Under the pieces are notes generated by a model. It did no database searches. It was not told the DNA's origin and saw nothing but the letters and a program-made list of their open reading frames with translations. From Minisyncoccota bacterium (GTDB lineage: Bacteria > Patescibacteriota > Minisyncoccia > Phycocordibacterales > CAIZLB01), in contig JAIPIA010000002.1 in NCBI GenBank assembly GCA_021734945.1, positions 194,829 to 258,828 of the forward strand: 64,000 nt of DNA, in the 5' to 3' direction. The position numbers and the translations under genes are program-made. Shown one piece after another: positions 4,276 to 48,845 of this stretch; positions within the stretch are counted from its first letter, which is position 1; each line of letters begins with the position of its first letter.

Positions 4276-5289
4276 ATGAAAAAAATAATTATTACAACAA
4301 TTTGCATACTTATTCTAGGCTCTATTATCTATAGTTCATCAAACAGTCACAAGAATCCAACCGGAAACAAAGATGAATCTACTAAGAAACAAGAAGTTAC
4401 CATTGCAATGGTTACCTTCCCTGGTTATGGTCCGCTTTTTCTTGCAAAGGATAAGGGATTCTTTACTGATGTTGATGTAAATCTTGAAACTATTGAATCA
4501 CTGGGAGACATACGTGCTGCAGTAAATTCAGGAAATGCAGATGCATACATAGCAACATATGACATGTATCAATCAATAAAGGGACAAAAACCCTCAGGTA
4601 TAGGTTTTCTTGTTGTGGATGAATCACACGGAGGAGACGGTATAGTCGTATCAAAGAATATTAATTCGATAAAAGATTTTAAGGGTAAAAAAGTTGGTGC
4701 TGAACCTGGGTTTCCTCCTTACCTCATACTCCAGTATATGCTAAATAAAGAAGGTATGACCCTTAAAGATATTGATTTCAAAGATCTACCCACTACTGAT
4801 GCAGGCATTGCGTTTGTGGCAAACAAGCTTGATGCTGCGGCAATATTTGAACCTAGTCTCTCTGCAAGTTCTAAAGCAAGGTCCGACTCAAAAATACTTG
4901 TAACGAGTTCAGATCCTGAAATAAAAGGCCTTGTTCAAGATATCCTCTTTGCTAATGAGACATTTATTAAAGAACACCCAGAAGCGTTGACCAAAGTTGT
5001 TGAAGGGTATTTCAAAGCCCTCGAATACATAAAAACAAATCCGGAAGATGCATACACAATTATGGCTAAACACTTTAATGTGTCCCCTGCTGAAATGAAA
5101 GATTTTACTAGTGGTATTAGTTGGATTTCAAAAGAAGAGAATACTTCAATCTTCAATAAAAATTCAAATGTGAATGTATACAAAACATTTACATTGGTCG
5201 GAGATTTACTTGAAAAAAATGAAGAGACTGATGTACGCGTAAACTCATATGAAAAACTTACAGACTCTATTCTTAAAAATACAAAGTAA
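4276..5289 (+). CDS. ABC transporter substrate-binding protein, NMT1/SsuA/TauA (NitT/TauT) family
   Basis: N-terminal membrane anchor/signal MKKIIITTICILILGSIIYSS. NMT1-like fold (FPGYGPLFLAKDKGFF...GNADAYIATYDMY). Confidence 0.6.
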   Translation: MKKIIITTICILILGSIIYSSSNSHKNPTGNKDESTKKQEVTIAMVTFPGYGPLFLAKDKGFFTDVDVNLETIESLGDIRAAVNSGNADAYIATYDMYQSIKGQKPSGIGFLVVDESHGGDGIVVSKNINSIKDFKGKKVGAEPGFPPYLILQYMLNKEGMTLKDIDFKDLPTTDAGIAFVANKLDAAAIFEPSLSASSKARSDSKILVTSSDPEIKGLVQDILFANETFIKEHPEALTKVVEGYFKALEYIKTNPEDAYTIMAKHFNVSPAEMKDFTSGISWISKEENTSIFNKNSNVNVYKTFTLVGDLLEKNEETDVRVNSYEKLTDSILKNTK

Positions 5290-33725: not shown

Positions 33726-34898
33726 CTACTTAACAATCTCAAACTTTGAACCCCTTACCTCCTTCACATATATAGGTACCTCCTTACTTAGATCACCATT
33801 CTGATCAAAACCAAAGTAACCCGTAAGTGTAACTGAAGCAGTATCCCCTTTCAAAACACATTCTTTCAATCCTTCTCCTATTTTAGAAGAGCAAGTTTTA
33901 TAATTATTTGATAGTTTATTTATCAAATCATATGCATAAGCACCGTATTGTTGAGGCTCACGACCATTAAACTTAGCCTTATATTCTTTACAGTATTGTT
34001 CAGTAGCACTATTTGATTCACATGAAAATGGAACTGCGGTAACCACAACTCCCTCATTTACGCCTTTAGTAATTTTCAAAAATTCATCACTATCTATACC
34101 TGAAAAACCAGCAACTAAACCTTTAAAGCCTAGTTCTCGAATACTTTTAATAACAGGACCTGCTGTTTTATCTACCCCCAGAACATAAATACTATCTGGT
34201 TTCGAGCTCAAAACTTTTGTCACAATTGTATTATATTCAACATCTTTTTTATAACCTTCTGTGTCAACGACCACTCCTCCACGAGAGGTAAAGTCTTCTG
34301 CAAATTGTTTTGTACCTGTAGTTAAAGTATCACTGCCAGAATCATATATGACTGCGACTTTATTTAGTTTTTCACCGTACATTGATGATCTAGACGCAAG
34401 AAATTCACTCATACGAGTTACCTCCCGTGTAATAGAAGGTTGTAGTGTAAGCGCAAAATCATCCTTACCCATCAACATAGGAGTAGCTGAGATAGCAAAA
34501 AATGGCACTTTAGATCTTTCTGAGACCGCAGACATTGCTATATTCACAGTGCTTCCTGGACCTGTAATAACAGCTTGTACCTTTTTATTTTGGATTAAAT
34601 TTTGAATTGCAGATATTCCCTTTTGTGGTTCACTAGCAGAATCTTCAATCCAAATACTTACAGAGTTGCCAACTTTTTCTTGGGCAAGTGCAATAGCGTT
34701 TTGTATGTCCTCACTTATTCCAGCAAAATTTCCAGTAATAGGAAGAACTACACCGATTTTTATTTGATTTGGATTAATCTGACTGCTGATTTGGTTATTA
34801 TGTTTGAAGTCACCTACTTCATAAATTCCCCATACCAGTACAAGCAGTGCGAGCGAAACATATATTGTTTTTTTATACATAGACATATTTAGAAACAT
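33726..34898 (-). CDS. LivJ/LivK-family periplasmic substrate-binding protein (Peripla_BP_6)
   Basis: Membrane anchor followed by IKIGVVLPITGNFAGISEDIQNAIALAQEKVG, typical of branched-chain amino acid/amide SBPs. Confidence 0.65.
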   Translation of the reverse strand: MFLNMSMYKKTIYVSLALLVLVWGIYEVGDFKHNNQISSQINPNQIKIGVVLPITGNFAGISEDIQNAIALAQEKVGNSVSIWIEDSASEPQKGISAIQNLIQNKKVQAVITGPGSTVNIAMSAVSERSKVPFFAISATPMLMGKDDFALTLQPSITREVTRMSEFLASRSSMYGEKLNKVAVIYDSGSDTLTTGTKQFAEDFTSRGGVVVDTEGYKKDVEYNTIVTKVLSSKPDSIYVLGVDKTAGPVIKSIRELGFKGLVAGFSGIDSDEFLKITKGVNEGVVVTAVPFSCESNSATEQYCKEYKAKFNGREPQQYGAYAYDLINKLSNNYKTCSSKIGEGLKECVLKGDTASVTLTGYFGFDQNGDLSKEVPIYVKEVRGSKFEIVK

Positions 34899-35087
34899 TT
34901 AATTAATTTTTAATCGAATTAGCAGAATTCCAATAGTCTAGTCTTATAAGCGTCTATAAGCCATACTTTTAGTTATATATGTATAGTAATTGCAAAATAT
35001 CCTTATTTGTATTAGTATTAAGCCTGTATAAATAACGCCGTAAAAGTCGGCATATATGTAAATTAAGTCTCAAATTAACTAAATCAT

Positions 35088-35849
35088 ATGTCTACACATC
35101 AACATAATCCCCTTCAGTCTTTGATTCAGTACGGCCTAACAGAGCGACAAGCCAAGGTATATATGGTCTGTCTAGAGTTTGGTGTTGCTTCAATCCAGCA
35201 GATCAGCAAGCGGCTACAGGTCGCACGGAGTTCATGTGAGGCTACACTTGGACAGCTCCAAGCAAAAGGCTTTATATCTGTTCACAAAAATAAGACAGTT
35301 AGAAAATATTCACCAGAAGATCCAAAACACGTACTCAAAAGTGCTGAGCAGAAGGTAAAGGCACTGTCCTCCTCCCTTCCTGATCTCACTGGTATATTTT
35401 TAAAAAATCGAACAATACCATCAGTTCGAATGTATGAAGGTAAAAATGGATTATGGTCAGTACTCGAAGAAATACTATCCGAGGCTAAAATTTTGTATGG
35501 ATTTGGTTCAGCAGATGCATTATTTGATACTATCGGTGAAACATTTCCAGAGTTTCGAAGACAGCGTATCCAAAAGAAAATATTAATTAAAATTATTTTA
35601 AAGGATAGTGTAAAAGCAAGACAACGACAAGAAGCTGGACCAAGTGAACTTCGAGACGTACGTATTATTAAGGATACAGGTAATTTTGCTAGTCTTATGT
35701 TTATGTGGAATTCTAAGATTGCTTCCTTTTCACTTGGAGACGAAATTGTAGCTGTAATAATTGAGAGTAAGGAAATCGCAGAGGGACAAATGGCTATGTT
35801 CAACTTTACATGGAATGGTTTGCCCGCGCATAGAGCTACGAATGTGTAA
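35088..35849 (+). CDS. TrmB-family wHTH transcriptional regulator (paralog 3)
   Basis: LIQYGLTERQAKVYMVCLEFGVASIQQISKRLQVARSSCEATLGQLQAKGFISV. Confidence 0.6.
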   Translation: MSTHQHNPLQSLIQYGLTERQAKVYMVCLEFGVASIQQISKRLQVARSSCEATLGQLQAKGFISVHKNKTVRKYSPEDPKHVLKSAEQKVKALSSSLPDLTGIFLKNRTIPSVRMYEGKNGLWSVLEEILSEAKILYGFGSADALFDTIGETFPEFRRQRIQKKILIKIILKDSVKARQRQEAGPSELRDVRIIKDTGNFASLMFMWNSKIASFSLGDEIVAVIIESKEIAEGQMAMFNFTWNGLPAHRATNV

Positions 35850-35923
35850 CCACACATTTTAAACGTGCGGGGAATTTTTAATATAAATTTCCCATCAATT
35901 TTTTATAAAATTCCCAAGATTCT

Positions 35924-36790
35924 CTAAAGCTTAAACTCCCCCAACATACCCTGTGGTCTATAAAGCATAAGAGCAATTAGAAGTCCGCCATACACAACCT
36001 GTCTCATTTGCGCAGCTATATCTGTTGGAAAACCAACGAACCGAAGAATTTCTGGCAAAAGGATAAGGAATAAGGCACCTAGAACAGCACCACGAACATT
36101 TGAAAGTCCTCCAAGAATAATCATTGCAAGTATAAAGATTGATTCGTTGAGTGTGAACGTAGATGGATCAATAAAAGTAATGTATGAAGCAAAGAGTGAA
36201 CCACCAATAGCTGCCATTCCTGCAGAAATAACAAAGATGACCAACTTGTACGTTTTTGTATTGTAACCAAATACACTTATAGCTTTTTCATCTTCACGAA
36301 TAGCTTTGAGGACACGACCAAACGATGAATTCACTATAAATCGGGCGATTCCATATACAATAAGCATCATTACAATAGCTAGAACTAAAAATTGTAGAGT
36401 AGATGAGAATGTATATCCAAAGATTTCAGGCTTCCCTATTCCTGGTATACCAAGAGGACCACGAGTTAAATCCTGCCAATTTAAAAATATACTGAAGACA
36501 ATAATGTTGAATCCGAATGATACCAATGCATAATAGTCATCTTTAAATCGTGCAAGTACGAAACCAATGAGAAGGGCGCATAGCATTGATACGACTATGC
36601 CTACCAGTACCGAAGTAAAAAAATTGAAACCATATACAGTCATAAGGATAGCTGTTGCATATGCACCGAAGCCATAAAATGCTGCGTGAGTTACAGAGAG
36701 GAGTCCTGTATAACCAACTACGAGATCAAGCGAGATAGCTAGACCAGCGTAGATAGTGAAGAGTACAGCGAGGTGATAAAGGTATTCCAT
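35924..36790 (-). CDS. livM: Branched-chain amino acid ABC transporter permease LivM-like
   Basis: GYTGLLSVTHAAFYGFGAYATAIL and the C-terminal conserved loop. Confidence 0.7.
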   Translation of the reverse strand: MEYLYHLAVLFTIYAGLAISLDLVVGYTGLLSVTHAAFYGFGAYATAILMTVYGFNFFTSVLVGIVVSMLCALLIGFVLARFKDDYYALVSFGFNIIVFSIFLNWQDLTRGPLGIPGIGKPEIFGYTFSSTLQFLVLAIVMMLIVYGIARFIVNSSFGRVLKAIREDEKAISVFGYNTKTYKLVIFVISAGMAAIGGSLFASYITFIDPSTFTLNESIFILAMIILGGLSNVRGAVLGALFLILLPEILRFVGFPTDIAAQMRQVVYGGLLIALMLYRPQGMLGEFKL

Positions 36791-36955
36791 GAGATTTTAT
36801 ACTCTTATATTATGCCGTAAATATGTATTTTGTGAAAGTTTGACAGACAATCAGTTTTAGATAAAATATAGATACTTTTGGGATTTCCCACGACCCCGCT
36901 CGAGAGAGCGGGGATAATTTTTTCTAAAGGCCTAGTAGGATTTGTAATTTTCTCT

Positions 36956-37324
36956 TTAATTGTATGAATATTTTTCGTCAATTTCACCATGTTTGTTAAC
37001 TAACCTTCGATAGTCGAACATTCTTATTTGCGAAAGATTGGCGGTAATGAACTTATTTTTATATAAGAATGAATAAAACCAAGTCCCCTCTTTAAACTTA
37101 GTAGTAAAAGGTATTCCGATAAACACTGTAGCGCTAAGTTTCTTTAATACAAGTATAGGTCTTGCAAACAAATCACCCTTACCATTAATTTCTACTCCAA
37201 TATTTTTGCCAACGCTACACCACCAAATTTCGCATTCTTTTAAAAAAGGAGGTTTATTATCCCTTGAATCAATTTGTTTTTTCTTTTCACTCCACTCTAA
37301 AAACGTATTCTCCACATCTCTCAT
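36956..37324 (-). CDS. MazF/PemK-like toxin-fold protein (orphan; paralog 1)
   Basis: CEIWWCSVGKNIGVEINGKGDLFARPILVLKKLSATVFIGIPFTT parallels MazF GDLIWVDFDPTKGSEQAGHRPAVVLS...CVPCTT. Confidence 0.45.
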   Translation of the reverse strand: MRDVENTFLEWSEKKKQIDSRDNKPPFLKECEIWWCSVGKNIGVEINGKGDLFARPILVLKKLSATVFIGIPFTTKFKEGTWFYSFLYKNKFITANLSQIRMFDYRRLVNKHGEIDEKYSYN

Positions 37325-37389
37325 GTTACTGAAAGGGAATAAAATACAGATAAATTAATTCTAAAAAAAATTAAAGGGTTCTAAATATA

Positions 37390-38526
37390 CTAAATACTCA
37401 CCAATTTACCTCCTCTCACCTCTTTCATCATAATTGCCGTACTACTTGAGACTACACCACCAATAGAATCAAACTTAATTGGACCGTATGTTTGCGTATC
37501 AAATTTTGTACTTAGCATATAAGCATTCAAGTCTTCGGCAGTATGAGGAGCGGGGTTATCTTTTAAATACTTTGCCAATACGTAAACAGTATCGTACGTA
37601 TTAATAGCACTAAACATAGGTTCTACACCAAATCTAGTTTTATACTTAGCAACAAAATCTGCTTTTGGATCTGAAGGTACATAGTATTTCGCTCCCTCAA
37701 CCCATTTTGCATCTACTTTTTTAGCTTGAATACTTTGTTCCAGAAATTCATCGGCAAATAGAGCAATATCCTTTTTAGTTAATTCATTCCATCTTTTTGG
37801 AAAATCTACTGAAAGCTTTTCATCATACGCACCAAAAAATACAGCATCAGGATTTGCACTTTGAACTTTAGAAATAACTGTTCTTACATCAGAACCGCTA
37901 TTCATAAACTCAGATCCAACAATTTTTATTCCCCTATTTTCAACCTCTTTTTTCAAAAATTGCACAAGGGTCGAATAATAAGAATCATTTTGAGTAACTA
38001 TATATAGTGTTTTTACACCAGATTTAATCATTTCATCTATTGTCACATTTGCTTTTGAAGATGTTCTGTACCAAAGTGAAAATACATTCTTATGGTTCTT
38101 GGGAATATTTACTGACTCAATTGCGGCATCTTGTGATATGAGTGGAATATTCTCTGACACAACAGACTCTGAACCCTGATATGAATCAAGCCACGTAATC
38201 ATTACAGCATTTACTTTATCTACATTTACAAGCTTTGACATCGCGTTCACAGAATCTTTAGAAGTACTCTTCATGTCTTCAATTACGATTTCAAGCTTCT
38301 TTCCATCAATACCACCTTTTGCATTTATCTCATCCTGAGCAAGTAAAATAGCGTTTCGTGAAGCCTCACCCCAGGCTGATGCATCGCCCGTAAGACCAAG
38401 TGCCGCACCAATTTTAAAAGAAGACACCGTTTGATTATTAGTATTTATACGGTACTTTTCGTTATATTTTGACAGCACCAACAATAAGCACACCAAAACA
38501 ATCAATGTAATAATTACTTTTTTCAT
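37390..38526 (-). CDS. LivJ-family periplasmic substrate-binding protein
   Basis: Signal anchor followed by FKIGAALGLTGDASAWGEASRNAILLAQDEINAKGGIDGKKLEIVIED. Confidence 0.65.
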   Translation of the reverse strand: MKKVIITLIVLVCLLLVLSKYNEKYRINTNNQTVSSFKIGAALGLTGDASAWGEASRNAILLAQDEINAKGGIDGKKLEIVIEDMKSTSKDSVNAMSKLVNVDKVNAVMITWLDSYQGSESVVSENIPLISQDAAIESVNIPKNHKNVFSLWYRTSSKANVTIDEMIKSGVKTLYIVTQNDSYYSTLVQFLKKEVENRGIKIVGSEFMNSGSDVRTVISKVQSANPDAVFFGAYDEKLSVDFPKRWNELTKKDIALFADEFLEQSIQAKKVDAKWVEGAKYYVPSDPKADFVAKYKTRFGVEPMFSAINTYDTVYVLAKYLKDNPAPHTAEDLNAYMLSTKFDTQTYGPIKFDSIGGVVSSSTAIMMKEVRGGKLVSI

Positions 38527-38676
38527 ATTGTATATTCTATACTTTTGAGGATTTTAGTAAACAGCTTGTCGGACCACCATAGGTCTCTCTGCCCTCACTA
38601 TCACAATTTTAATCAAATATAAAAGGCATATCCTACAAGGATATGCCTTTTATACCTTTTCACATGCAACTTTATA

Positions 38677-39759
38677 TTATTGTATTTCGCTCAGAACTCC
38701 TCCTTTGATTATTTTCATACCAAACTCAGGCTGGCGTAATCCTTCTTTGTTGAATGATATATTACCAGTAACGCCCTTAAGAGATAAAGATTTCATATTA
38801 TTACTCATAACCTTTGAGTCAGCGTCATATCCGGCCACAAACGTATTGAATGCGTCATATCCGTATCCGGCAAATATAGATGGTTCTGCACCGTATCTGG
38901 CTTTGTATTTTTCAACAAAGACAGGATCCATTTTTGATTTAAGTGACATTACATATGAACCATCAAGCACCGATAGGTCTGGAAACGCACCTGTATATTC
39001 GACACTGTCATAGATAAGATCAAATACGATTGTGGGCTTGTTTGGATATTTTTGAATTTCTTTTAACACTCTCGCTCCATTTGATGAATATGCACTAAGA
39101 ACAACAATCTTTGGGTTATGAGCCATTGCCTTTGCAACTATAGTGGCATATTCTTTTTGATTTTGATCGAGTTTAAATTCTTCAACAAAAGGATTACTGT
39201 ATCCTTTCTTTATGTTGCTCACAAACTTCATCACCGTTGAATCATTTGTATAAAACAACACAGTATCATTTCCATTACTCATTTTCTTTACAAATTCCCC
39301 CGTTGCAACTTCAGGCGCATCTTGCGTTGGGTAGACCTGGTACACAGTGTCGTCAGCAGGATCTCTATCTTGTTCACCAAGTTGAATCACCGGTAACTTC
39401 GAGTTTGTTACGGAATCATACACAATACTAATAGTTGGGCTACTCAAGTTAATTAATCCATCTATTTTATTGAATGACACTAATTTATTGTATGCACTAA
39501 GTCCTTTTTTACTTTCACTTCCATCATCTTCAACACTGAGAGAGATTTGAGCATCAGGATTACTCTTAGTATATTCTTCATGAGCAAACTTAATACCTTG
39601 TGAAAAAGCCTGTCCGAGTGCAGCAAAGGCACCTGTTTCACTCGATATAACTCCTACACTCAACTTCGTCGGTTCGATTTTGTTATTCTTGTTAGCAAAT
39701 GAAAATACTATTACTAGTACAATCAATACACCTAAGAAACCATATGCAATCTTTTTCAT
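38677..39759 (-). CDS. LivJ-family periplasmic substrate-binding protein (divergent paralog)
   Basis: Signal anchor followed by LSVGVISSETGAFAALGQAFSQGIKFAHEEY. Confidence 0.55.
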   Translation of the reverse strand: MKKIAYGFLGVLIVLVIVFSFANKNNKIEPTKLSVGVISSETGAFAALGQAFSQGIKFAHEEYTKSNPDAQISLSVEDDGSESKKGLSAYNKLVSFNKIDGLINLSSPTISIVYDSVTNSKLPVIQLGEQDRDPADDTVYQVYPTQDAPEVATGEFVKKMSNGNDTVLFYTNDSTVMKFVSNIKKGYSNPFVEEFKLDQNQKEYATIVAKAMAHNPKIVVLSAYSSNGARVLKEIQKYPNKPTIVFDLIYDSVEYTGAFPDLSVLDGSYVMSLKSKMDPVFVEKYKARYGAEPSIFAGYGYDAFNTFVAGYDADSKVMSNNMKSLSLKGVTGNISFNKEGLRQPEFGMKIIKGGVLSEIQ

Positions 39760-39942
39760 TTAAGTAATTTATTATGTTATTTTTAACGTACAACATTATT
39801 CAATCAATTTGTTATATGGTCAATTTTGATAGGTATCGTTGTCGTTATTAAGTATTAATATATTGTTTTAAATAAGGTTTAAATCTAAATATTGATAAAA
39901 TCGCCAGTTTTATTGACTAATTTGCCATTTAGTTTACTATAA

Positions 39943-40692
39943 GTGTATATGAATAAATTGGTAGAGTCGCTTAAAACACTAGGATATTCGGATAAAGAGG
40001 CTTTGACATACGTCTCCCTGCTCGAACTTGGTCGCGCAACAGCATATTCTGTATCCGAAAAGTCAGGTCTCAAGAAACCAACTACTCACGTCATTCTGGG
40101 TGAACTCCTCAAAAAAGGTGCAGTTATTACAATTCCAGGCGCTAAAAAGAAGATATTTACAGTAAGATCTCCTGAGGAGCTATTCGCACGAGCCGAGGAA
40201 AGTTTAATAAGAGCAAAAAAGTCCCTTCCAGATTTATTGTCTATGGCTTTAGAGAGTCGTTCTGAATTTAAGACTCTCTACTACGAAGGAATCCAAGGAC
40301 TAAAAGATTCTTTGTATTATAAAATGAAGACAGTCAAAAAGAAGGAGCTTATAGGTTTTTATGCACTCGTAACAAAGGATGTAGATCCTGTAGTACTACG
40401 CATGTTTGATGTTTGGGGTAAAGATTTAAAGGAAAATTCAATAAGAATGAGAGGTTTCACTCCAGAACATTCCTCGACTGAAAGATACAAACCTGCGTCT
40501 AATGATCCATATCGAGATTTGCGTTTTCTTCCTTTAGAAAATTATTCTTCTGAAATATCTATAGAGGCACTCGATGATTTTGTTAGAATTACAGATATTA
40601 GACATCTCCAAATAGTAATTATAGACAATCCACATATCGCTAGGACACTTAGACAAATATTTGAAATGATGTGGCAAGTACTTCCAAGATAG
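39943..40692 (+). CDS. TrmB-family wHTH transcriptional regulator (paralog 4)
   Basis: LKTLGYSDKEALTYVSLLELGRATAYSVSEKSGLKKPTTHVILGELLKKGAVI. Confidence 0.6.
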   Translation: MYMNKLVESLKTLGYSDKEALTYVSLLELGRATAYSVSEKSGLKKPTTHVILGELLKKGAVITIPGAKKKIFTVRSPEELFARAEESLIRAKKSLPDLLSMALESRSEFKTLYYEGIQGLKDSLYYKMKTVKKKELIGFYALVTKDVDPVVLRMFDVWGKDLKENSIRMRGFTPEHSSTERYKPASNDPYRDLRFLPLENYSSEISIEALDDFVRITDIRHLQIVIIDNPHIARTLRQIFEMMWQVLPR

Positions 40693-40735
40693 ACTTTGAA
40701 GTAATTTAATTTAAACTATCCGAACTTTAATCTAA

Positions 40736-41665
40736 CTAAGCAAGCTTCAACGCAGGAATAATCTGCTTCTTTCGAGATACGATTCCAGGAAGCACTTCTG
40801 TATCACCATCAACTTGAACGCCAAAAGATGCACTGATAACACCTTTCAAGAAATCATTGTATGTGAACACTGTAGCCTCTTCTCGTAGAATATCTACCAC
40901 AAAGAAAAGTACATCGTCGATATCACCATCTTGAGCAATAACTTCACCAATAGCTTTTACAATCCCCTCTTTTCGGACAAGTACTGATGCTGGATCTGTA
41001 GTTTCAACAACAGAAACTCGGATGTTTTTATCACCTACTTCGAACTTCTTACTATCGAGGTGAATAAGCCCTATGTCTGTAAAATCTGAAACATCTGACT
41101 TTGCTTTGAACATTTCATTTGCATACTCTGTGATATTTAGACCAAGTCGAGCCGCCAACTTTTCCGCAATTGCTTTATCATGTGGAGTTGTTGTAGGAGA
41201 ACGAAACTCAAGTGTGTCAGAGAGAATACATGAAAGCATTACTCCAGCGATATCTTCTGGCATAGTTTCAGCGTGAGTACCCATGAGGTCGTGCATAACT
41301 GTAGCAGTTGATGCCACTGGTCGAATAGTCATCTCAATAGGACCTTTTGTCATGAGACCTCCTATAAGCTTGTGATGATCTATGATCTGGAGAATATCTG
41401 CTTCATTCACCCCAGAGAGGAGTTCTTGGGGATTGTTTGTATCTACAATCACCACTTTGTCTTCTGCATCTACTTTTTCGAGAAGTGTAGGTTCAGTCTG
41501 TCTCCATCGTCCGAGAACAAACTTTGTCTCCTTGTTAAGTTCACCAAGTACATATGCCTCTGCTTTGTGAGTAGTGTGAGTGTTGAGGTACCAAGCCCAA
41601 ATAATAGCGCAGCTAGTAGCGTCTGTGTCAGGTGAAATGTGCCCAAAAACTTTGATTGTTGTCAT
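40736..41665 (-). CDS. ppaC: Manganese-dependent inorganic pyrophosphatase, family II (DHH-DHHA2)
   Basis: MTTIKVFGHISPDTDATSCAI, VIVDTNNPQEL, IIDHHKL, DHHA2 region. Own sigma70-like promoter (TTGTCA-16-TATGAT) at 41676-41703. Confidence 0.7.
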   Translation of the reverse strand: MTTIKVFGHISPDTDATSCAIIWAWYLNTHTTHKAEAYVLGELNKETKFVLGRWRQTEPTLLEKVDAEDKVVIVDTNNPQELLSGVNEADILQIIDHHKLIGGLMTKGPIEMTIRPVASTATVMHDLMGTHAETMPEDIAGVMLSCILSDTLEFRSPTTTPHDKAIAEKLAARLGLNITEYANEMFKAKSDVSDFTDIGLIHLDSKKFEVGDKNIRVSVVETTDPASVLVRKEGIVKAIGEVIAQDGDIDDVLFFVVDILREEATVFTYNDFLKGVISASFGVQVDGDTEVLPGIVSRKKQIIPALKLA

Positions 41666-42127
41666 AATGCGTACATCATACAAAAATTTGGTCGTTTGAC
41701 AAAGGGGTTTTGTATTCAAACCCTTAGGTACCACTCCCATAATTAACCTGATTAAAGCATCTTTGATTGACCTAAATTCTCCAGATTCAACACTCCTTAT
41801 TTTCCTAAGAAATCTTTTAGTACTTATCAGACGTATTTGTGAAAGTAGAATGGAGTATGTATCACCTTTAAAATAAATCGTATAATAGAAAATTCCTTCT
41901 TTAACTTTAGTAGTAATTGGCAGGACTAAACAAACTCTCTTATTAAACTTTTTTAAGACTAAAACTGGTCTCTCATATAATGAATTGACACCATTCTGTT
42001 CATCTCCAACATTTAGACCCAAAGAGCACCACCATATTTCTCTTTCTAAGATGGCATGTTTTAATTCACCTTCAATTACTTTATCAATTTCTATTTTTAG
42101 TCTATTCCAATCATTATAATCCTTCAT
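41666..42127 (-). CDS. MazF/PemK-like toxin-fold domain (paralog 2), in frame with ppaC with no intervening stop
   Basis: REIWWCSLGLNVGDEQNGVNSLYERPVLVLKKFNKRVCLVLPITT is homologous to 36956..37324. The ORF 40736..42127 reads through into ppaC. Confidence 0.45.
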
Positions 42128-42247
42128 AGATACATATTTATATATTTAACCTACTGAATTTTTCATCAATATTTTATAAAAATACTTATACACCTATAAT
42201 TAGCGAAATATTTGACAAGAAATTATTTTTAAAATAATATGTATCTA

Positions 42248-42347
42248 CAAATGGGTTGTGTGTGAAGAATCACAACCGCCGGAGATAGTGTTCGTAAGGA
42301 CACTAATCGTATATTAAAGAGACCAGCAAAAACTGGTTTTTTTAATT
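42248..42347 (+). ncRNA. Candidate small RNA with three hairpins and an intrinsic terminator
   Basis: Promoter-like TTGACA(42213)-17-TAATAT. Hairpins GGTTGTG...CACAACC, AGTGT...ACACT, ACCAGcaaaaaCTGGT followed by ttttttt. Confidence 0.25.
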
Positions 42348-42390
42348 GGGCAGACTAGTTGATAATATCAGCCACTATAAACATAATTCC

Positions 42391-43311
42391 CTATCTCTTC
42401 AAAATTCCCTGTGGACGTACAAGTAAAAATACGATCAATAATGTGAAGGCAATGGCATCTTTCCATTCACCTGATATCTTCCAAATACCAAAGTTCTCAA
42501 CAAAGCCGAGCAAGAATGCACCAAGTACTCCACCGTATACGTTTCCGATTCCACCAATAATAGAAGCAATAACACCCTTGAGCAGTAGTGCCATTCCCAT
42601 AGTTGGCTCAAGGCCTGTGTCATATCCGACGAACACACCAGCAAGCCCTGCAATAGCCGATCCAATTACGCAAACTATAGCAATTGTTTTTTCTGTATTG
42701 ATACCTACAATTTTAGCGACTTGTTCGTTATCACTAATAGCTTCAACAGATTTTCCAAAAAGCGAACGCTTTAAGTACACACCGAGCGCAATCATAATAA
42801 CGAATACTGAAATGATTATAGCAAGCTGGACCTGAGTAATAATTCCTCCAAAAACATTAAACGTAACAATATCCCCTGCTCCAGAACTGAGTGTTTGAAA
42901 TTGACTTGTAAAAAGGATTGCAAGAAAAGCCTGAAGACAAGTGAATGCACCAAGTGAAGCAACTAAAAAAACCATTTGTGAAGCTTTTCGTTCTCGAAGT
43001 TTTTTAAATAGGAAACGATTGAGTAACCAACCAACAGAAGCTGCAACAACAACGCCTATAATAGTAGTAACTATGATTCCTAAAGTACCAGAGTTAAAGA
43101 AATCTCCAAGAGGTTGTATCGAAGCACCCAAACCAGGAAGTTTCTTTGTAAGAAAATATACTGTGTAACCACCAATAGCGGCAACAACACCATGAGTTAA
43201 GTTAAAAAACTTTGTTGTTCCATATATAAGATTGAAACCAAGAGCAACAAGAGCATAGATAGCTCCCGCAATAAGACTATTCGCAATGAGTTGTGGGATT
43301 ATACTGTCCAT
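42391..43311 (-). CDS. livH: Branched-chain amino acid ABC transporter permease LivH-like
   Basis: AIYALVALGFNLIYGTTKFFNLTHG and the conserved C-terminal region. Confidence 0.7.
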   Translation of the reverse strand: MDSIIPQLIANSLIAGAIYALVALGFNLIYGTTKFFNLTHGVVAAIGGYTVYFLTKKLPGLGASIQPLGDFFNSGTLGIIVTTIIGVVVAASVGWLLNRFLFKKLRERKASQMVFLVASLGAFTCLQAFLAILFTSQFQTLSSGAGDIVTFNVFGGIITQVQLAIIISVFVIMIALGVYLKRSLFGKSVEAISDNEQVAKIVGINTEKTIAIVCVIGSAIAGLAGVFVGYDTGLEPTMGMALLLKGVIASIIGGIGNVYGGVLGAFLLGFVENFGIWKISGEWKDAIAFTLLIVFLLVRPQGILKR

Positions 43312-43313
43312 TT

Positions 43314-43553
43314 TTATTCCAATTCTTTTATAAATATAAATCTCGGACCTTTGTAATTGAGTTCAGGTTTATCTACACTCTCGATAAACATTTCTAATGG
43401 TCTTATATAAAGTTTAAAGTCCCCATACAGCGCCCGATATGCAACCATTTTTTCTTCAGTCTCTGTATGCATTCCAACGCCAATTACCTCATAAATCATC
43501 GACTTATCTTTGAAATGTTGATAAATTCCCCGCTTTAGAGTTTCATTATTCAT
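43314..43553 (-). CDS. DUF1653-domain protein
   Basis: YQHFKDKSMIYEVIGVGMHTETEEKMVAYRALYGDFKLYIRPLEMF. Confidence 0.5.
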   Translation of the reverse strand: MNNETLKRGIYQHFKDKSMIYEVIGVGMHTETEEKMVAYRALYGDFKLYIRPLEMFIESVDKPELNYKGPRFIFIKELE

Positions 43554-43565
43554 AGAGGTATTTTA

Positions 43566-43608
43566 CCACAAAACAAAACCGCCTATGCATTTCAGCTAGG
43601 TGGTTTTT
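43566..43608. repeat. Terminator-like repeated element, copy 1
   Basis: caaaaccGcctatgcatttcagctaggtggtttttt. Copy 2 at 44384..44430 shares ...tcagctaggtggtttt and the upstream aaaacc.cc. Confidence 0.4.
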
Positions 43609-43616
43609 TAATACAC

Positions 43617-44348
43617 CTACTTTTTAAGTAAGACAGCGAAAGGATGAACTATCTCCAACAAATGATCTCCATTTCGTTCAATGATTTCTTGTACAGCTGC
43701 AAACTCAGCATCTATACGAGCTTGATCAAGAGGTAACTCCTCCACTTCCGCAAAACCTACTTCAATAGCCATTCTTTTAACGTACTCCGCAGTAACAAAC
43801 TGATCTTCTGTAAAACCATTATTATACACAACAGTTCCATCAGGCTTTTGCATTTTATCGTAACCGAAGCTACTTATAAGAAATTGACCTGTTGGTTTTA
43901 AAACCCTATGTGCTTCCGCAAGTATTTGCTCAGCGCTTTTTTCAATAGGTGCATTTATAAGATTAATAGACAAAGCAAAAGCCACTGACTCATTTTTAAA
44001 AGGTGTATCTGTTACATCAGCAGTAACCGGCCTTACGACGGTTTCATTCTCTCTTCTTTGGTGATAAGGGTGAAGCATCCAACTTTCCAAACGTTCAACA
44101 GTGTCGTCAATAGGAATTAGAATTAATCCCCTATCTTCAAGCTGATGTGTATAAGAATGATCTTCAAGTACGTGAATATAGCCTGCACCAAGATCAAGCA
44201 CTGTATCACCCGCTTTCAAATCTGCGGCATCAAATATTTGTCCATATGTTTCTGGAGCGACAAAATCAGGGTGGTTAAGTATCTTTCCTTCAAGACCTTT
44301 AAGTATTTCTTTTTGATAGGGTTCAAATCCGTTAAGAGCTTCACTCAT
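43617..44348 (-). CDS. Class I SAM-dependent methyltransferase-like protein
   Basis: Motif I DTVLDLGAG. Remainder is atypical. Confidence 0.45.
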   Translation of the reverse strand: MSEALNGFEPYQKEILKGLEGKILNHPDFVAPETYGQIFDAADLKAGDTVLDLGAGYIHVLEDHSYTHQLEDRGLILIPIDDTVERLESWMLHPYHQRRENETVVRPVTADVTDTPFKNESVAFALSINLINAPIEKSAEQILAEAHRVLKPTGQFLISSFGYDKMQKPDGTVVYNNGFTEDQFVTAEYVKRMAIEVGFAEVEELPLDQARIDAEFAAVQEIIERNGDHLLEIVHPFAVLLKK

Positions 44349-44383
44349 ATGCTGTGATTATATCAGTTCGATTCCCTTTAGTC

Positions 44384-44430
44384 CTTAAACAACAAAACCA
44401 CCCAGACATTCTCAGCTAGGTGGTTTTGCA
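44384..44430. repeat. Terminator-like repeated element, copy 2
   Basis: caaaaccAcccagacattctcagctaggtggttttg. Stem CCACC/GGTGG flanked by A- and T-runs, so it can terminate in both directions. Confidence 0.4.
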
Positions 44431-44466
44431 TATTTTTCTCTGCGGTTTCTAGATAATTTTCTGACC

Positions 44467-45591
44467 CTAATCCTCAATCCTCACCGGTTTACCATTCTGT
44501 ATAATCTTTGTAACAGCCTTAGTCAAAACGAATCCATCTTTATCAATTTTCAAATGCCCTAGTGCTCCTTGGATATCTACATTATATAGAGCATCTTTGA
44601 TATTTGAACTTGAAACTTCTTTTCCAGGATTAGCTTTACTTGCTCGTTCAGCTGAATCAATAATCATCTTTGTGATGTCATATGCATTTGCTGTAGCAAT
44701 CACTTGTTCTTTTCCATACATATTTTTATATGCAGTTCTAAATTCATCAGATGAATCAGCAGCATTTACATACCAGTATCCTTCGAACAAATCTGGTCGA
44801 TCTGTAAGTTCAAAACCTTCAAGTGAAGTTAGTGGCTTTCCAATATTTGCATCTTTAAGTTGTTTTGAAAGAGTTTCAAGCTCTGGTGAAAATGCAATAG
44901 GTACATATATATCTGGATTTGTAGCTTTTGCTTTTGCAACAATTGTACGGAAATCAGTTGTTCCAAAGTTGAACACGTCTTTACTCACAATTTGAATATC
45001 TGTTCCCTGCACTTGTTTCTCAAGTTCATCAATCACAGCAGTAATACCTTGAATATTCGCACCAAACACAGCAACTTTCTTTATATGTCGCTTTTGCAAT
45101 TCCTCAATAAAGAGTCGCACTTCTTCAAATGGAGGTGTCCAATGTATGAAGTTGTAATCCCCTTTTGCAATATTTGGGTCTGAGGCAATACCCATGTGAA
45201 CGATTTGATTCTTTTCAGCAATAGGGTTTGCAATATTTCCAGCGGCTGACGCAAATGTCATGAGAGCGCTAACCTTATCTACTGAAATTAATTTGTTTAA
45301 TGCAGAGGCTGTTCTTTTCGGATCAAAACCATCGTCTTCCATTACAACCTTGTACGAGTTCTTTGAAGTCGGGTTTGCCTTTTCAAATTCATGAATAGCA
45401 AGTTCAGCACCATTTCTTATTCCTTCACCAGCAAAGGCCAAGCTACCTGAAAGCGGCCCAGAAATACCAATCTTAATCACCTGACCTGTAGAAGCAGTCT
45501 GACTAGTGCTATTTGATTTTGAATATGATGAGATACCCCAAACAGCTAGCAATACAGCGACTATTACAATAATAATTTTTGTTTTGTTCAT
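44467..45591 (-). CDS. LivJ-family periplasmic substrate-binding protein
   Basis: IKIGISGPLSGSLAFAGEGIRNGAELAIHEF. Confidence 0.65.
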   Translation of the reverse strand: MNKTKIIIVIVAVLLAVWGISSYSKSNSTSQTASTGQVIKIGISGPLSGSLAFAGEGIRNGAELAIHEFEKANPTSKNSYKVVMEDDGFDPKRTASALNKLISVDKVSALMTFASAAGNIANPIAEKNQIVHMGIASDPNIAKGDYNFIHWTPPFEEVRLFIEELQKRHIKKVAVFGANIQGITAVIDELEKQVQGTDIQIVSKDVFNFGTTDFRTIVAKAKATNPDIYVPIAFSPELETLSKQLKDANIGKPLTSLEGFELTDRPDLFEGYWYVNAADSSDEFRTAYKNMYGKEQVIATANAYDITKMIIDSAERASKANPGKEVSSSNIKDALYNVDIQGALGHLKIDKDGFVLTKAVTKIIQNGKPVRIED

Positions 45592-45789
45592 ATAATATAT
45601 ACGGATTACGCTCCGTGTCAGCGCTTACATTTAATAACTCCACTACTATGCAACACATCTAGTGTTCTGTGTAATATTGGAACAATATTTAACTGTATAG
45701 TACCTATTTTATAAGGATATTCTGTATATTATAAAAATATTGTCCGTTTAGAGTGACATTTTAAAGCAGATATTGTATGCTACTTATAT

Positions 45790-46644
45790 ATGAAACAAAG
45801 CCACCTAAACGAGCAACTAAAACACATAGGTTTAACTGATAAAGAAGCCTTGATCTATGGTTCCCTCTTAGAGTTGGGTGGTAGTGGCTTTCCATCATCT
45901 ATTGCTGAAAAGGCGGGTATCAAACGAAGTACTGCTTACAAGATTCTGCTTGGTCTCAGTATAAAAGGTCTTGTAAATGAGATTCAGAAAAGAAATAAGA
46001 TATTCTACCAAGTAGAAAAACCGGAGCGTCTTATACGGCACGCAAAAAGTCAGATACAAATAGCTGAAGATAATCTTGAAAAAGCAGAACGCCTATTCCC
46101 TGAACTTCAAGGTCTCTACGCTCTCACAGCTGGAAAACCTAAGGTGAGATTCTTCGAAGGGACTGAGGAAGTTAACTCCATCTACTTAGAAATGGTAACT
46201 CCGGACCAAAAACCTTATGAAATGATTGCCTTCGCGAATGCCAAAGCTTTCAAAAACAATATGACATTTGAGCAAGTGAGATATTTTGTGAAAGAAAAGG
46301 AAAAGCTTGATATCCCCGTTCGTGCAATTGTGCCAGATACAGCTGAGGACCGACAATTTAATCCAACAGTTTTCGACGGAATACATAAGAAATATTGGCC
46401 TAAACTACGATATATACCTGCAGACATGTTTCCTTTTGAAACTGAAATTACTTTATACAGTACTGACAAAGTAGCTATCGCTAAATTTGGAAACAAACAT
46501 CCAATAGCTGTTATCATCGAAGATGCTGTGATTTACGGAACTATCAAATTAATGTTTGAACTTGCATGGCTTGGAGCAGAGAGATTCGATAATAGTCACA
46601 GCGATAGTCCAACATCAATTGATCATATATACAAAAACCACTAG
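45790..46644 (+). CDS. TrmB-family wHTH transcriptional regulator (paralog 5)
   Basis: LKHIGLTDKEALIYGSLLELGGSGFPSSIAEKAGIKRSTAYKILLGLSIKGLVNE. Confidence 0.6.
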   Translation: MKQSHLNEQLKHIGLTDKEALIYGSLLELGGSGFPSSIAEKAGIKRSTAYKILLGLSIKGLVNEIQKRNKIFYQVEKPERLIRHAKSQIQIAEDNLEKAERLFPELQGLYALTAGKPKVRFFEGTEEVNSIYLEMVTPDQKPYEMIAFANAKAFKNNMTFEQVRYFVKEKEKLDIPVRAIVPDTAEDRQFNPTVFDGIHKKYWPKLRYIPADMFPFETEITLYSTDKVAIAKFGNKHPIAVIIEDAVIYGTIKLMFELAWLGAERFDNSHSDSPTSIDHIYKNH

Positions 46645-46694
46645 CCTCAGTGGGACCAGCGGTTTTGCGTGAATCTATTTAAATCAAATCCTAA

Positions 46695-47852
46695 TTACCT
46701 CAAATCCACCAACGTATTATTCTCAACTTTTTTAAAGCTGAAACCTACACCTTTTACGTCACCAGTATTGTCGAATGAAAAATCTCCAATAACACCACTG
46801 TACGAATCGAGACCATTTAGATATTTTTTATTTGCCTCTACGCCAGTACCAGTCTTTTCAATAGTCTGCTTGAGTAAGTATGCATAGTCGTACATCTCCC
46901 CTGCCACGAATGGGTAATTTATTGTTCCACCAAATTGAGCCTTATAATTAGTCACAAAACGCGCAGACTGTGGTCGATTAGAATTTAGAGAAGGTACATC
47001 AAGAATAACGGCACCGTTTACAGCAGAATTTGCTTTTACAAACTCATCTCCAGTCATAAAGAATTCTACAAACTGTGCCTTGATCCCCATATCACGCGCT
47101 TGTTTTGCAATAAGCGCACCCGCAGACCCAACTTGTGGGTTTATAAATAGAACCTCTGGATTTGTTAATTTAATCTTAGTTAGAATTGTCTTAAAATCTT
47201 TCATATCACCATTGAATGTTTCTAAGGCAATAACCTCTCCTCCAAGATCACGGACACTTTGAATAAAAGTTTTTTCAAGGGCTACAGCATAATCCGTTTT
47301 TTCTGTAATAGTCGCAACCTTCTTATATTTTGGAACAAGATATTCTGCGAGAGCTCTTCCTGAAAGTGCATCACTTGGAAATGTTCTAAAGAAATATTTA
47401 CCTTTACCTGTTATATCAGGACTTGTACCCTGACCAAGAAATATCACCGGCTTCTGTTCTGTAAGTGGCAAGATAGCAAGTACCTCACTACTACACATTG
47501 CTCCAACAATATATTGGACCCCATCTGTATTAATGAGTTTTTGTGCAGCATTCAATGCATCTTTACCACTACACTTTGAATCTTCATACACAGCCTCAAT
47601 CTGCCGACCATTTATTCCTCCAATTTTATTTATTTCATCAACGGCTATTGCGAAACCATTTTTACCAGCTTCACCATATGGGGCAGCACCACCTGTTAAA
47701 GGTTCAACTACTCCTATTTTTATTGGACCCTTAGACGTTGTGCTATCAGAGACAGAAGTTACAGATGGAGATTTTGACCAAAAAGATGTACAAACAAGCC
47801 CGAGTATCACTACTATACCTATAGTGTATATGCCTTTTTTCGTTGGATTCAT
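46695..47852 (-). CDS. LivJ-family periplasmic substrate-binding protein
   Basis: IKIGVVEPLTGGAAPYGEAGKNGFAIAVDEINKIGGINGRQIEAVYED. Confidence 0.65.
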   Translation of the reverse strand: MNPTKKGIYTIGIVVILGLVCTSFWSKSPSVTSVSDSTTSKGPIKIGVVEPLTGGAAPYGEAGKNGFAIAVDEINKIGGINGRQIEAVYEDSKCSGKDALNAAQKLINTDGVQYIVGAMCSSEVLAILPLTEQKPVIFLGQGTSPDITGKGKYFFRTFPSDALSGRALAEYLVPKYKKVATITEKTDYAVALEKTFIQSVRDLGGEVIALETFNGDMKDFKTILTKIKLTNPEVLFINPQVGSAGALIAKQARDMGIKAQFVEFFMTGDEFVKANSAVNGAVILDVPSLNSNRPQSARFVTNYKAQFGGTINYPFVAGEMYDYAYLLKQTIEKTGTGVEANKKYLNGLDSYSGVIGDFSFDNTGDVKGVGFSFKKVENNTLVDLR

Positions 47853-47979
47853 AAAATTGTGTTTAATTTATTAATTTAGCAACAGTATCTTACACATCTA
47901 TATTTATGTAAAACTGTTGACACGCTTTGACAACTAACACAGGTTTGAGCTACCATATTGATATAGATAGGTTGGTAAT

Positions 47980-48747
47980 GTGAATCGTAATAATAATTTT
48001 ATGGAACTTATAAACGACAAGGAGCGGCGGGTAATGGAAGCTCTTTTTAAACTTGGGAATTGTACGGTCAATCAAATATCTAAGGAAACCCTCATAAATC
48101 GTACCGCCCTCTATCACACACTGGGGCTTTTGATTAAAAAAGGGTTAGTGACACAAGTCGAGAAAGATAAGATCTCATACTATGAAGCAATATCCATTGA
48201 ACAATACGAGAAATGGGTGGAATCAAAAATCGAGACACTTAAACAAACCTCAAAGAAAGATGTGGCTATTTTTTCAACCGTTAAAAAAGACAAGAAGCTT
48301 TCACTCTACGCGGACGTAAAATACTTTGAAGGACCTGAAGGTATCAGAAACTTTTTTGCTGATAGCATTTATAATAATAAAGAAAAGCAGATTCTAACTA
48401 TTACTGACTATGAAAGTGGTTATGCAAAACTTGGTGACTGGTTTACTGAAGTATATTTACCTGAACGAGTACGAAAAGGTGTGCGAGTAAGGAGTGTATT
48501 GCCAGACTCCCCTATTGGGCGAAGTTATGTAAAATCTGCAAAGGAGCTTTTACGTGACATGTGCTTTGTAGATATTTTTAAAGATTTAGGGATAGAAATG
48601 GCAGTATATGATTCAAAAGTAACTATTACAGTATTCGATAAAAAGCATCCAATTGGCGTAATTATCAAAAACGATATTATTGCGAATGCATTTCGAGAGA
48701 TATTTACGTATATTTGGAAGACTGGGGAGAAAGTTAATATAAAGTAG
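47980..48747 (+). CDS. TrmB-like wHTH transcriptional regulator (paralog 6, more divergent)
   Basis: MEALFKLGNCTVNQISKETLINRTALYHTLGLLIKKGLVTQVE. Confidence 0.5.
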   Translation: MNRNNNFMELINDKERRVMEALFKLGNCTVNQISKETLINRTALYHTLGLLIKKGLVTQVEKDKISYYEAISIEQYEKWVESKIETLKQTSKKDVAIFSTVKKDKKLSLYADVKYFEGPEGIRNFFADSIYNNKEKQILTITDYESGYAKLGDWFTEVYLPERVRKGVRVRSVLPDSPIGRSYVKSAKELLRDMCFVDIFKDLGIEMAVYDSKVTITVFDKKHPIGVIIKNDIIANAFREIFTYIWKTGEKVNIK

Positions 48748-48845
48748 TTTCAATCGATTGAGGACGGTCATTAAAAAAAACCAATAAAAAAAACACCCAC
48801 ACATTTAAGCGAGGTGTTTTATATTAGTCCTATCTTGTTGTTAAA

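Follow-up and report, generated by a model that had tools for sequence, protein, structure and literature searches.

We analyzed a window of 64,000 nucleotides (nt) from the metagenome-assembled genome (MAG) of a Minisyncoccota bacterium (assembly GCA_021734945.1, contig JAIPIA010000002.1, positions 194,829 to 258,828), which carries two open reading frames (ORFs) for MazF/PemK-like proteins, here named ORF A and ORF B. ORF B continues without a stop codon into ppaC, the gene of a family II inorganic pyrophosphatase, and comparison with related contigs shows that this translational fusion is real and has been maintained by evolution in a small clade of Paceibacteria (Patescibacteria). Nearly all members of the MazF-like subfamily are followed immediately downstream by a conserved element of about 100 nt, which covariation, promoter and terminator show to be a small-RNA gene found across the family. 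The explanation which we judge best overall, and probably though by no means certainly right, is a maintained MazF–PpaC fusion with an internal ppaC promoter and with the small RNA as candidate antitoxin or regulator.

The MazF–PpaC fusion

The features of the window on which this section rests are the following (loci and proteins used for comparison are designated L and P, respectively; aa, amino acids):
36956..37324, minus strand: ORF A, single-domain MazF/PemK-like gene, 122 aa as it stands
40736..42127, minus strand: ORF B, MazF/PemK-like domain and PpaC in one frame, 463 aa
41738..42127, minus strand: MazF/PemK-like domain of ORF B (aa 1–130), from PF02452, AlphaFold2, Foldseek and the substitution rates
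41666..41737, minus strand: linker of 24 codons, GVVPKGLNTKPLCQTTKFLYDVRI, open in frame
40736..41665, minus strand: ppaC, family II (DHH–DHHA2) Mn-dependent inorganic pyrophosphatase (NF003877, PF01368, PF02833)
41675..41702, minus strand: ppaC promoter TTGTCA-16-TATGAT, a 10/12 match whose -10 ends 9 nt before the ATG

ORF B consists of the MazF-like part, the 24-codon linker and a PpaC part of 309 aa with no stop between them, and the stretch spanning the linker reads GLNTKPLCQTTK. That it runs stop-free into a family II ppaC had been stated in the preliminary description and is confirmed by the NCBIfam equivalog for manganese-dependent inorganic pyrophosphatase, NF003877, which scores 346 bits (cutoff 283) over aa 155/156–463. 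Both the DHH (PF01368) and the DHHA2 (PF02833) domain are present, with the DHH motif IDHHKL, and the usual ppaC start (MTTIKVFGH) is retained inside ORF B as the ATG at 41665-41663. About 116 close PpaC homologues are stand-alone proteins of 306–370 aa, nearly all of 306–316 aa, and an N-terminal MazF domain is found in 4 of the 120 best-scoring PpaC homologues listed. ORF B departs from the usual PpaC layout (about 306–316 aa, starting with M-x-x-I-K-V-F-G-H) by an N-terminal extension of 154 aa. The stand-alone MazF-like homologues stop near aa 129, all 80 of 80 within 0–23 codons after it and mostly within 0–7. Since they end around aa 129–135, the 24 codons in front of ppaC are an addition.

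Two more Patescibacteria contigs (L001 and L002), found by scanning species-representative genomes, carry mazF-like::ppaC ORFs that are in frame and free of stops, with 480 and 478 aa. The protein databases contain further fusions, namely P0122 (463 aa, on five contigs) and P0123 (463 aa), which are 87–88% identical, and P0124, which is stop-free and in frame with 443 aa; P0121, named pyrophosphatase at NCBI and assigned to a ‘Candidatus Pacebacteria’ MAG, is the ORF B protein of the window itself. The search in related genomes proposed earlier as a check therefore returned at least six in-frame versions from independent assemblies, made from different samples with different assemblers; they represent four divergent MazF alleles and linkers of three types. 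The architecture is found on at least nine contigs of NCBI, JGI and Logan assemblies, and their sequences are mutually divergent.

The three linker types are:
type a, 24 codons: window, L096, L100
type b, 41–42 codons: L001, L002
type c, 40 codons: L101

Frame 0 is open in all three types, each of the other frames has 0–3 stops, and the indels between the types (3, 48 and 51–54 nt) are all multiples of three. Among the a-type genes the ratio of nonsynonymous to synonymous substitution rates (dN/dS) is 0.07–0.12 for the MazF domain at dS 0.6–0.95, and 0.05–0.07 for ppaC at dS 0.57–1.07. For the linker it is 0.4–1.0 in all pairs (up to 1.14 between the window and types b and c) at a lowered dS. 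These ratios show that the MazF domain of ORF B is under purifying selection, with a dN/dS of about 0.1, and suggest that the linker evolves almost neutrally at the protein level. Between linker types dN of the MazF domain is 0.4–0.7 and saturated, as is dS, whereas dN of ppaC is 0.004–0.08 and unsaturated. This contrast indicates that different mazF alleles have been swapped in beside a conserved ppaC. A 16-aa remnant of the C-terminus of the c-type MazF is found upstream in L096 and L002. Among the relatives examined there is no case of mazF, stop and ppaC in this order, and the unfused close ppaC genes have no mazF upstream. The preliminary description had left the choice between a genuine fusion and a decaying toxin gene that lost its stop. 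For ORF B the substitution pattern and the relatives favor the fusion and do not support decay; decay fits ORF A instead (see below).

The internal promoter of ppaC

Promoter-like matches are no more frequent across the region than in shuffled sequence. The promoter noticed earlier between the two domains is nevertheless part of a block, CTTTGTCAAA..TGTATGATGTA (more fully CTTTGTCAAA-N-TTTTGTATGATGTA(C)CCATTATG), which is kept upstream of ppaC in every close relative. The comparison comprised L001–L004, L096, L100–L102, L105 and L107, with mazF present or absent, and the block is also kept where secY, livH or another gene with a normal stop precedes ppaC. This conservation shows that ppaC retains its own promoter within the fusion ORF and supports the earlier proposal that PpaC can be made alone. 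The -10 hexamer ends 6–9 nt before the ATG of ppaC and no Shine-Dalgarno sequence is visible; for this reason ppaC is probably translated from a leaderless or near-leaderless mRNA. On a read-through transcript the internal ATG would be without a ribosome-binding site, so that the PpaC part would be made there only as fusion. More generally, upstream of 42127 and 41665 in the window and at many other loci the ATG of mazF-like genes and ppaC is preceded at 6–9 nt by the end of a -10-like hexamer, often TGnTAAAAT, again with no Shine-Dalgarno sequence, which suggests that leaderless mRNAs are widespread in these Patescibacteria.

The -35 hexamer lies in the palindrome TTTGTCAAA (window 41697-41705; also in L001, L002 and L101), which provides the -35 of two back-to-back promoters, that of ppaC as TTGTCA and, on the other strand, that of an antisense small RNA as TTGACA. 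A terminator-like hairpin (GGGTTT..AAACCC), which had also been proposed between the two domains, is present in the sequence, but its role as a terminator is not supported: the terminator scan did not call it, its fold is no more stable than that of shuffled sequences (z 0.09), and L096 and L100, the nearest relatives, do not have it.

The MazF-like proteins

The two ORFs had been described as homologous and MazF/PemK-like. ORF A and the MazF-like part of ORF B are 46% identical over 82 aa (E = 1e-23), and with 25.0 bits for ORF A and 47.5 bits for ORF B (aa 30–128) both exceed the gathering cutoff of 23.1 of Pfam family PF02452 (PemK_toxin). NCBI names the ORF A protein (P0241) a PemK/MazF family toxin; none of the NCBIfam profiles matched ORF A and PADLOC returned no match. 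A profile of 94 MazF-like sequences of the subfamily, searched against the PDB, retrieved MazF, EndoA and MoxT structures (E = 6e-8). In the alignment R53 and T72 of ORF B correspond to residues 25 and 48 of Bacillus subtilis MazF, which we take to be the catalytic Arg25 and Thr48. R53 is invariant across the 94 sequences, and the motifs RP..L and P-x-(T/S)-(T/S) are retained in 6/6 fusions.

The AlphaFold2 model of ORF B aa 1–135, with a predicted local distance difference test score (pLDDT) of 91.4, has the MazF/Kid fold, i.e., an SH3-like barrel and a C-terminal helix. In a Foldseek search of the PDB with this model the best 50 of 113 matches (E <= 0.001) are all MazF, MoxT or EndoA with template modeling (TM) scores of 0.65–0.80 (target-normalised), and MoxT, Staphylococcus aureus MazF and B. 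subtilis YdcE/EndoA are at the top. An additional N-terminal helix (aa 4–16) with the invariant residues W7 and K11 is specific to the subfamily. Pfam, the profile comparison with solved structures and, for the ORF B domain, the model concur on the fold suggested earlier, and identify ORF A and aa 1–130 of ORF B as MazF/PemK-fold paralogs. Such proteins may cleave RNA in a sequence-specific manner and inhibit growth. An exhaustive search found 1,054 cluster representatives (50% identity) of the subfamily at E <= 1e-10, mostly of 126–175 aa. The subfamily has many members in the candidate phyla radiation and also occurs in Bacteroidota.

ORF A appears to be an ordinary subfamily member truncated by a homopolymer frameshift, which could be either an inactivation or a sequencing error:
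36971..36975, minus strand: A5 run, one A short of the A6 of the orthologue (DNA alignment with L108)

In comparison with a 92%-identical orthologue of 133 aa, ORF A has a 1-nt deletion in this A-run, which replaces the last 16 residues, the second half of the C-terminal helix, by YSYN. Without the shift ORF A would have 133 aa and stop at the TAG at 36926-36924; the aligned orthologues (P0242–P0247) have 128–137 aa. The frame supported by the orthologue reads KIFIQLKRKLQILLGL and ends at a normal stop. An alternative frame with a 50-aa read-through (KLTKNIHTIKEKI) was ruled out by the same orthologue.

A small-RNA gene convergent with the toxin gene

The preliminary description regarded both MazF-like genes as orphan toxins. 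This holds insofar as no candidate for a protein antitoxin is adjacent to ORF A or ORF B; at about 75 family loci the neighbors vary in size and orientation and include no recurrent protein family, so that the missing protein antitoxin characterises the family as a whole. It does not hold in that a convergent small-RNA gene accompanies nearly every member, with divergent copies in the window. This gene of about 55–60 nt is found convergent with the toxin gene at about 70 loci, and has this layout:
strand opposite mazF: TTGACa, 16–17 nt, TATAnT, 6 nt, 5′-ACAAAUGG, hairpin P2 (GGCC...GGCC or GGC-UUCG-GCC), nCCGAGa, hairpin P1, CG, U-tract

Hairpin P1 has 7–10 base pairs and often a GCAA loop. 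In an alignment of 42 copies, made from sequence only with MAFFT, 95.3% of the cells pair and 9 of the 11 pairs show compensatory changes (59 cells). None of 500 shuffles reached the observed values (0/500), and slid registers gave only 32–68% pairing. A covariance model built from this alignment and searched against 550 kb of family loci gave 79 matches, all on the strand opposite mazF. Of the 73 distinct matches 70 lie within <=120 nt of the end of a MazF-like ORF, and at most loci the stop codon of the toxin is 1–10 nt inside the 3′ tail of the small RNA. The promoter is matched at >=9/12 positions in 63 of the 73 matches compared with 5.5% of control windows, with the -10 at a fixed distance. 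In several stems A.C mismatches on the mazF strand correspond to G.U pairs on the proposed strand. The single-stranded motifs ACAAAUGG and CCGAGA are conserved in sequence. In about 15% of the stand-alone members the toxin ORF reads 27–75 nt through the RNA gene before it stops. A Segetibacter MAG (Bacteroidota) and a predicted viral contig carry the module as well.

Other interpretations of the element were considered and rejected. C-terminal tails of the type ETPxFxGESRxP, which look like a peptide motif, are the translated GC-rich hairpins of the small RNA. An attC-like site of an integron or another DNA recombination site was set aside, as the conserved positions are the -35 and -10 at fixed spacing, a fixed start and a U-tract terminator. 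A small ORF from a conserved AUG of the RNA was dismissed too: the stems covary and the terminator follows within 45 nt. No model of Rfam 15 matches the small-RNA loci of the window or the family loci, even at E up to 10, and literature searches for a solitary MazF, or for a PF02452 toxin with a dedicated small RNA, found nothing specific.

At the locus L114 (Bacteroidia MAG; 2501-2941 and 3987-4295) an intact MazF-like gene is situated among genes for an integrase, a RepO-like protein and an N6-methyltransferase and is followed by a plain terminator only. A strong small-RNA copy (46 bits) is found 1 kb away after an ORF of 83 aa which resembles a decayed MazF-like C-terminus. Two known Rfam families were also observed near MazF-like loci, a LOOT RNA (83.6 bits; L017 607-728) and an RT-16 RNA (79.4 bits; L053 897-1097).

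Candidate small-RNA genes in the window and in the linkers

The window contains two candidate small-RNA genes:
36840..36923, plus strand: candidate small-RNA gene A, convergent with ORF A (promoter, terminator call and weak model match)
36840-36867, plus strand: its promoter TTGACA-16-TAAAAT, with 11/12 the best match in the region
36874 (about), plus strand: its predicted start (ACUUUUGGG), giving a transcript of about 50 nt
36894-36913, plus strand: its terminator hairpin, with a T-run to 36923 (terminator scan; z -1.8)
42212..42344, plus strand: candidate small-RNA gene B, divergent from ORF B and about 85 nt upstream of it
42212-42240, plus strand: its promoter TTGACA-17-TAATAT
42247 (about), plus strand: its start (ACAAAUGGG), followed by two hairpins, the terminator hairpin being at 42322-42337 with T7

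Small-RNA gene A has the position and orientation seen at the roughly 70 family loci, and its 3′ end abuts the stop codon which ORF A would have in the family frame. Its hairpin and the aligned 3′ flank are kept in L108. Small-RNA gene B shares the architecture of the family RNA, has a predicted folding energy of -33.5 kcal/mol (z -5.7) and is 95–97% identical in L096–L100 and L002, where the coding genes have diverged to dS 0.4–1.0; in L001 its promoter is kept and the first stem is shortened. Pairing of small-RNA gene B with the mazF::ppaC mRNA, as calculated with RNAduplex, was no better than in shuffles and was discarded.

The antisense small-RNA gene is complete in the b-type linkers (L001 and L002), and a divergent copy of it with a weak model match (8.9 bits, E = 0.046) is found in the c-type linker (L101). 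The -35 of ppaC, TTGTCA, is the reverse complement of the perfect TTGACA of the small RNA. As read from these comparisons the linker of ORF B is a remnant of the antisense small-RNA gene together with the ppaC promoter, and in the a-type linker of the window the body of the small RNA appears to have been deleted in frame.

An element GACGAGGCAAGCCCGAAGGCACT(T)GTA is repeated in L096 (about 2500-2640), L100 (3700-3820), L002 (5650-5780) and in the linker of L101. This element and the 16-aa remnant of the c-type MazF sit upstream of small-RNA gene B, and these upstream loci look like hotspots for the exchange and decay of mazF and small-RNA cassettes. Both MazF-like genes are located, as had been noted, within an array of repeated genes for Peripla_BP_6 solute-binding proteins, TrmB-family regulators and components of branched-chain amino-acid permeases (window 33726-50000). 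In relatives ppaC directly follows secY; hence the array looks like an expansion between secY and ppaC.

Comparison with known systems

The type II systems MazEF, PemIK and Kid–Kis resemble the proteins described here in the toxin fold, the membership in PF02452, the equivalents of the catalytic Arg and Thr and the length of about 110–135 aa. They differ in that a MazE/PemI-type gene is adjacent to no member of our subfamily that was examined, and in that our subfamily has the extra N-terminal helix, the convergent small-RNA partner and the fusion to a housekeeping enzyme.

ToxN of the type III systems has a Kid/MazF-like fold. The type III systems ToxIN, CptIN and TenpIN likewise combine a protein endoribonuclease toxin with the gene of a non-coding RNA (PMC3401426, PMC5086642). 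Their antitoxins, however, are arrays of tandem repeats that precede the toxin gene on its own strand and are separated from it by a terminator (PMC3401426, PMC5086642), whereas the RNA reported here is present as a single copy with a consensus promoter of its own and converges on the toxin gene from the opposite strand. No tandem repeats were found near ORF A or ORF B. Furthermore, the toxin is a true PF02452 member and not a ToxN, CptN or TenpN.

Several type I systems have convergent antisense RNAs overlapping at the 3′ end, namely par Fst/RNA II of pAD1 and txpA/RatA and bsrG/SR4 of B. subtilis, in which the toxin gene and an RNA of about 60 nt converge on a hairpin or terminator that they share. 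Most type I toxins are small hydrophobic peptides, and SymE/SymR shows that a nuclease-like protein can also be a type I toxin. The convergence of a toxin gene with a small RNA of about 60 nt is a match in geometry only: the toxin here, of about 130 aa, is soluble and has the MazF fold, the overlap of the transcripts is a predicted one, and the small RNA has conserved single-stranded motifs which are unneeded for antisense pairing alone.

In EzeT a toxin domain is also covalently joined to a second domain with possible modulation in cis, and the partner is the cognate antitoxin domain (PMC4826407). The partner in ORF B, in contrast, is an intact housekeeping pyrophosphatase which would also be made alone, and there is no sign that it neutralises the toxin. 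Known accessory domains of PpaC (CBS/DRTGG) are inserted within the DHH domain. ORF B agrees with family II PpaC in the DHH–DHHA2 architecture and the equivalog-level score and differs in that the MazF domain is N-terminal. A structured RNA candidate has been named the pemK RNA motif for its association with pemK. This motif exists as an Rfam family (PMC11507696) and does not match the element in the window or at the family loci. Full-text searches of papers found no report of a MazF–pyrophosphatase fusion.

A model for the fusion and the small RNA

We suggest that the fusion arose in these following steps. The ancestor would have carried mazF and the small-RNA module directly upstream of ppaC, with the two promoters sharing the -35 palindrome TTTGTCAAA. 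Loss of the mazF stop would then have let the ORF read through the antisense small-RNA gene into ppaC. The small-RNA gene would have stayed intact in L001 and L002 and as a divergent copy in L101, and its body would later have been deleted in frame in the lineage of the window. Two products could be made from such a locus, PpaC alone from its own promoter, probably via a leaderless mRNA, and the 463-aa MazF–PpaC protein from an upstream promoter. The safest inference is that in the lineage of the window the selected MazF domain is made only as MazF–PpaC. The advantage of the fusion might lie in attenuation, tethering or co-regulation after the loss of the cis-antisense RNA.

The small RNA could be the missing antitoxin or regulator, either by pairing with the toxin transcript, similar to type I, or by binding the nuclease, similar to type III. 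The nearly invariant convergent geometry favors antisense action, and the conserved single-stranded motifs favor binding to the protein. The latter would also explain why small-RNA gene B, which overlaps no mRNA, is kept and strongly conserved. In its widest form, which we put forward tentatively as a possibility to be taken seriously rather than as the expected outcome, the model states that a widespread subfamily of true MazF/PemK proteins is under a dedicated convergent small RNA of about 55–60 nt in place of a protein antitoxin, as a class of toxin–antitoxin systems not described before in which a toxin of a type II family follows type I or type III logic, and that in one clade of Paceibacteria the toxin was captured as N-terminal domain of the essential PpaC, the toxin domain then being produced solely within a housekeeping enzyme.

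Several points weigh against this picture. It is computational as a whole and every functional step in it is inferred. We cannot name a benefit of joining MazF to PpaC. The frame evidence consists of a few in-frame indels, and the b- and c-type linkers share their right half; the rough probability of 0.01–0.04 that the frame was retained by chance through the observed indels is suggestive rather than conclusive. In the window small-RNA genes A and B match the family model weakly, with 9.4 bits (E = 0.031) and 7.5 bits (E = 0.12), although each was the best match in its targeted search of 201 nt and that of gene A was on the expected strand and at the expected place; a covariance-model search of the whole window found neither copy at a useful E-value. 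Small-RNA gene B shows no compensatory changes, its sequences being too similar. In the seed alignment the count of G.U against A.C favors the proposed strand only by 10 to 5. Some members, for example the intact gene in L114, are without the RNA. In L035 (4963-5383; 35 bits) a copy is convergent with an unrelated 116-aa multi-pass membrane protein, and the small-RNA module may also serve other cargo genes.

The open frame of ORF B could also have other origins. A missed stop or a chimeric join is conceivable in so far as the window comes from a MAG and the homopolymer difference in ORF A is of the sequencing-error type. For ORF B, however, the at least nine divergent contigs from NCBI, JGI and Logan, obtained from different samples, effectively refute such an artefact, and we regard it as excluded by this comparison, with a negligible residual chance. 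Unlikely, yet to be reckoned with, is a neutral read-through in which the stop was lost by chance, a functionless extension is tolerated and the frame is simply unbroken so far. With only 0–3 off-frame stops an open linker is not very improbable, the linker ratios of 0.4–1.0 indicate no constraint at the protein level, the right half common to types b and c reduces the independent cases, and the stand-alone members which overrun the RNA gene (about 15%) show that the stop position is loose in the family. Three linker types with indels in multiples of three and four strongly diverged MazF alleles are nevertheless all in frame, no broken or stop-separated version was found among the relatives examined, and the MazF domain is under strong purifying selection and can be made from the a-type locus only as fusion. 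This argues for the maintained fusion.

It is also conceivable that the fusion is rarely or never completed, that is, transcripts end or are cut in the linker, at the hairpin or through small-RNA pairing and ribonuclease III, and the non-stop product is tagged by transfer-messenger RNA (tmRNA) and degraded, which would silence the toxin. L001 and L002 have a strong hairpin (z -2.3) and the full antisense small-RNA gene within the ORF with no prior stop, and the same hairpin follows the normal stop of a second MazF-like gene in L100. This mechanism would leave the open, in-register frame into ppaC unexplained. Moreover, the window-type linker has neither a significant hairpin nor an antisense RNA gene, the hairpins have no U-tract on the mazF strand, and no tmRNA was found within the window; we consider this silencing mechanism quite improbable. 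Finally, the MazF-like protein might not be a toxin, and might instead process or bind RNA and act on the adjacent small RNA. More than 70 loci without a protein antitoxin, where the genes persist and often in ordinary chromosomal contexts, would fit this role, as would the subfamily-specific N-terminal helix with W7 and K11, the conservation of ACAAAUGG and CCGAGA beyond the needs of a pure antisense RNA and the lack of a PADLOC match. Against this, the positions of the catalytic Arg and Ser/Thr in MazF are conserved. The fast turnover of MazF alleles and the cassette remnants beside a slow ppaC are in our judgement typical of toxin or defence genes, and some members are found in mobile contexts (integrase, RepO and methyltransferase genes; a viral contig). 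A role other than that of a toxin appears improbable.

Further fusions and significance

Other fusions occur in the subfamily (P0278, P0366, P0383 and P0286), with a C-terminal HNH endonuclease, NUDIX hydrolase or nucleotidyltransferase or an N-terminal GNAT acetyltransferase. The linkers of P0366 and P0383, the NUDIX and nucleotidyltransferase fusions, resemble translated small-RNA hairpins, so that fusion by read-through may recur in the MazF-like subfamily. In L093/L094 (about 4001-4384) and L074 (229-693) otherwise intact MazF-like homologues have a single in-frame stop at the conserved Arg or Ser, which would point either to pseudogenisation or to an alternative genetic code in the host.

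Orphan genes of MazF, the textbook toxin of type II, are usually written off as decaying or as cross-regulated. If a small-RNA partner is indeed present across more than 1,000 clusters, the boundary between the types of toxin–antitoxin systems would blur and annotation pipelines would mislabel these genes as type II. The small RNA would then be a new family of structured RNAs with strong covariation and a consensus promoter that is open to experiment. The fusion ORF is an example of an ORF that encloses a promoter and, in some of the relatives, also an entire antisense gene, and MazF–PpaC would offer a natural test case of a nuclease toxin which is tamed by, or exploits, the linkage to an essential enzyme.

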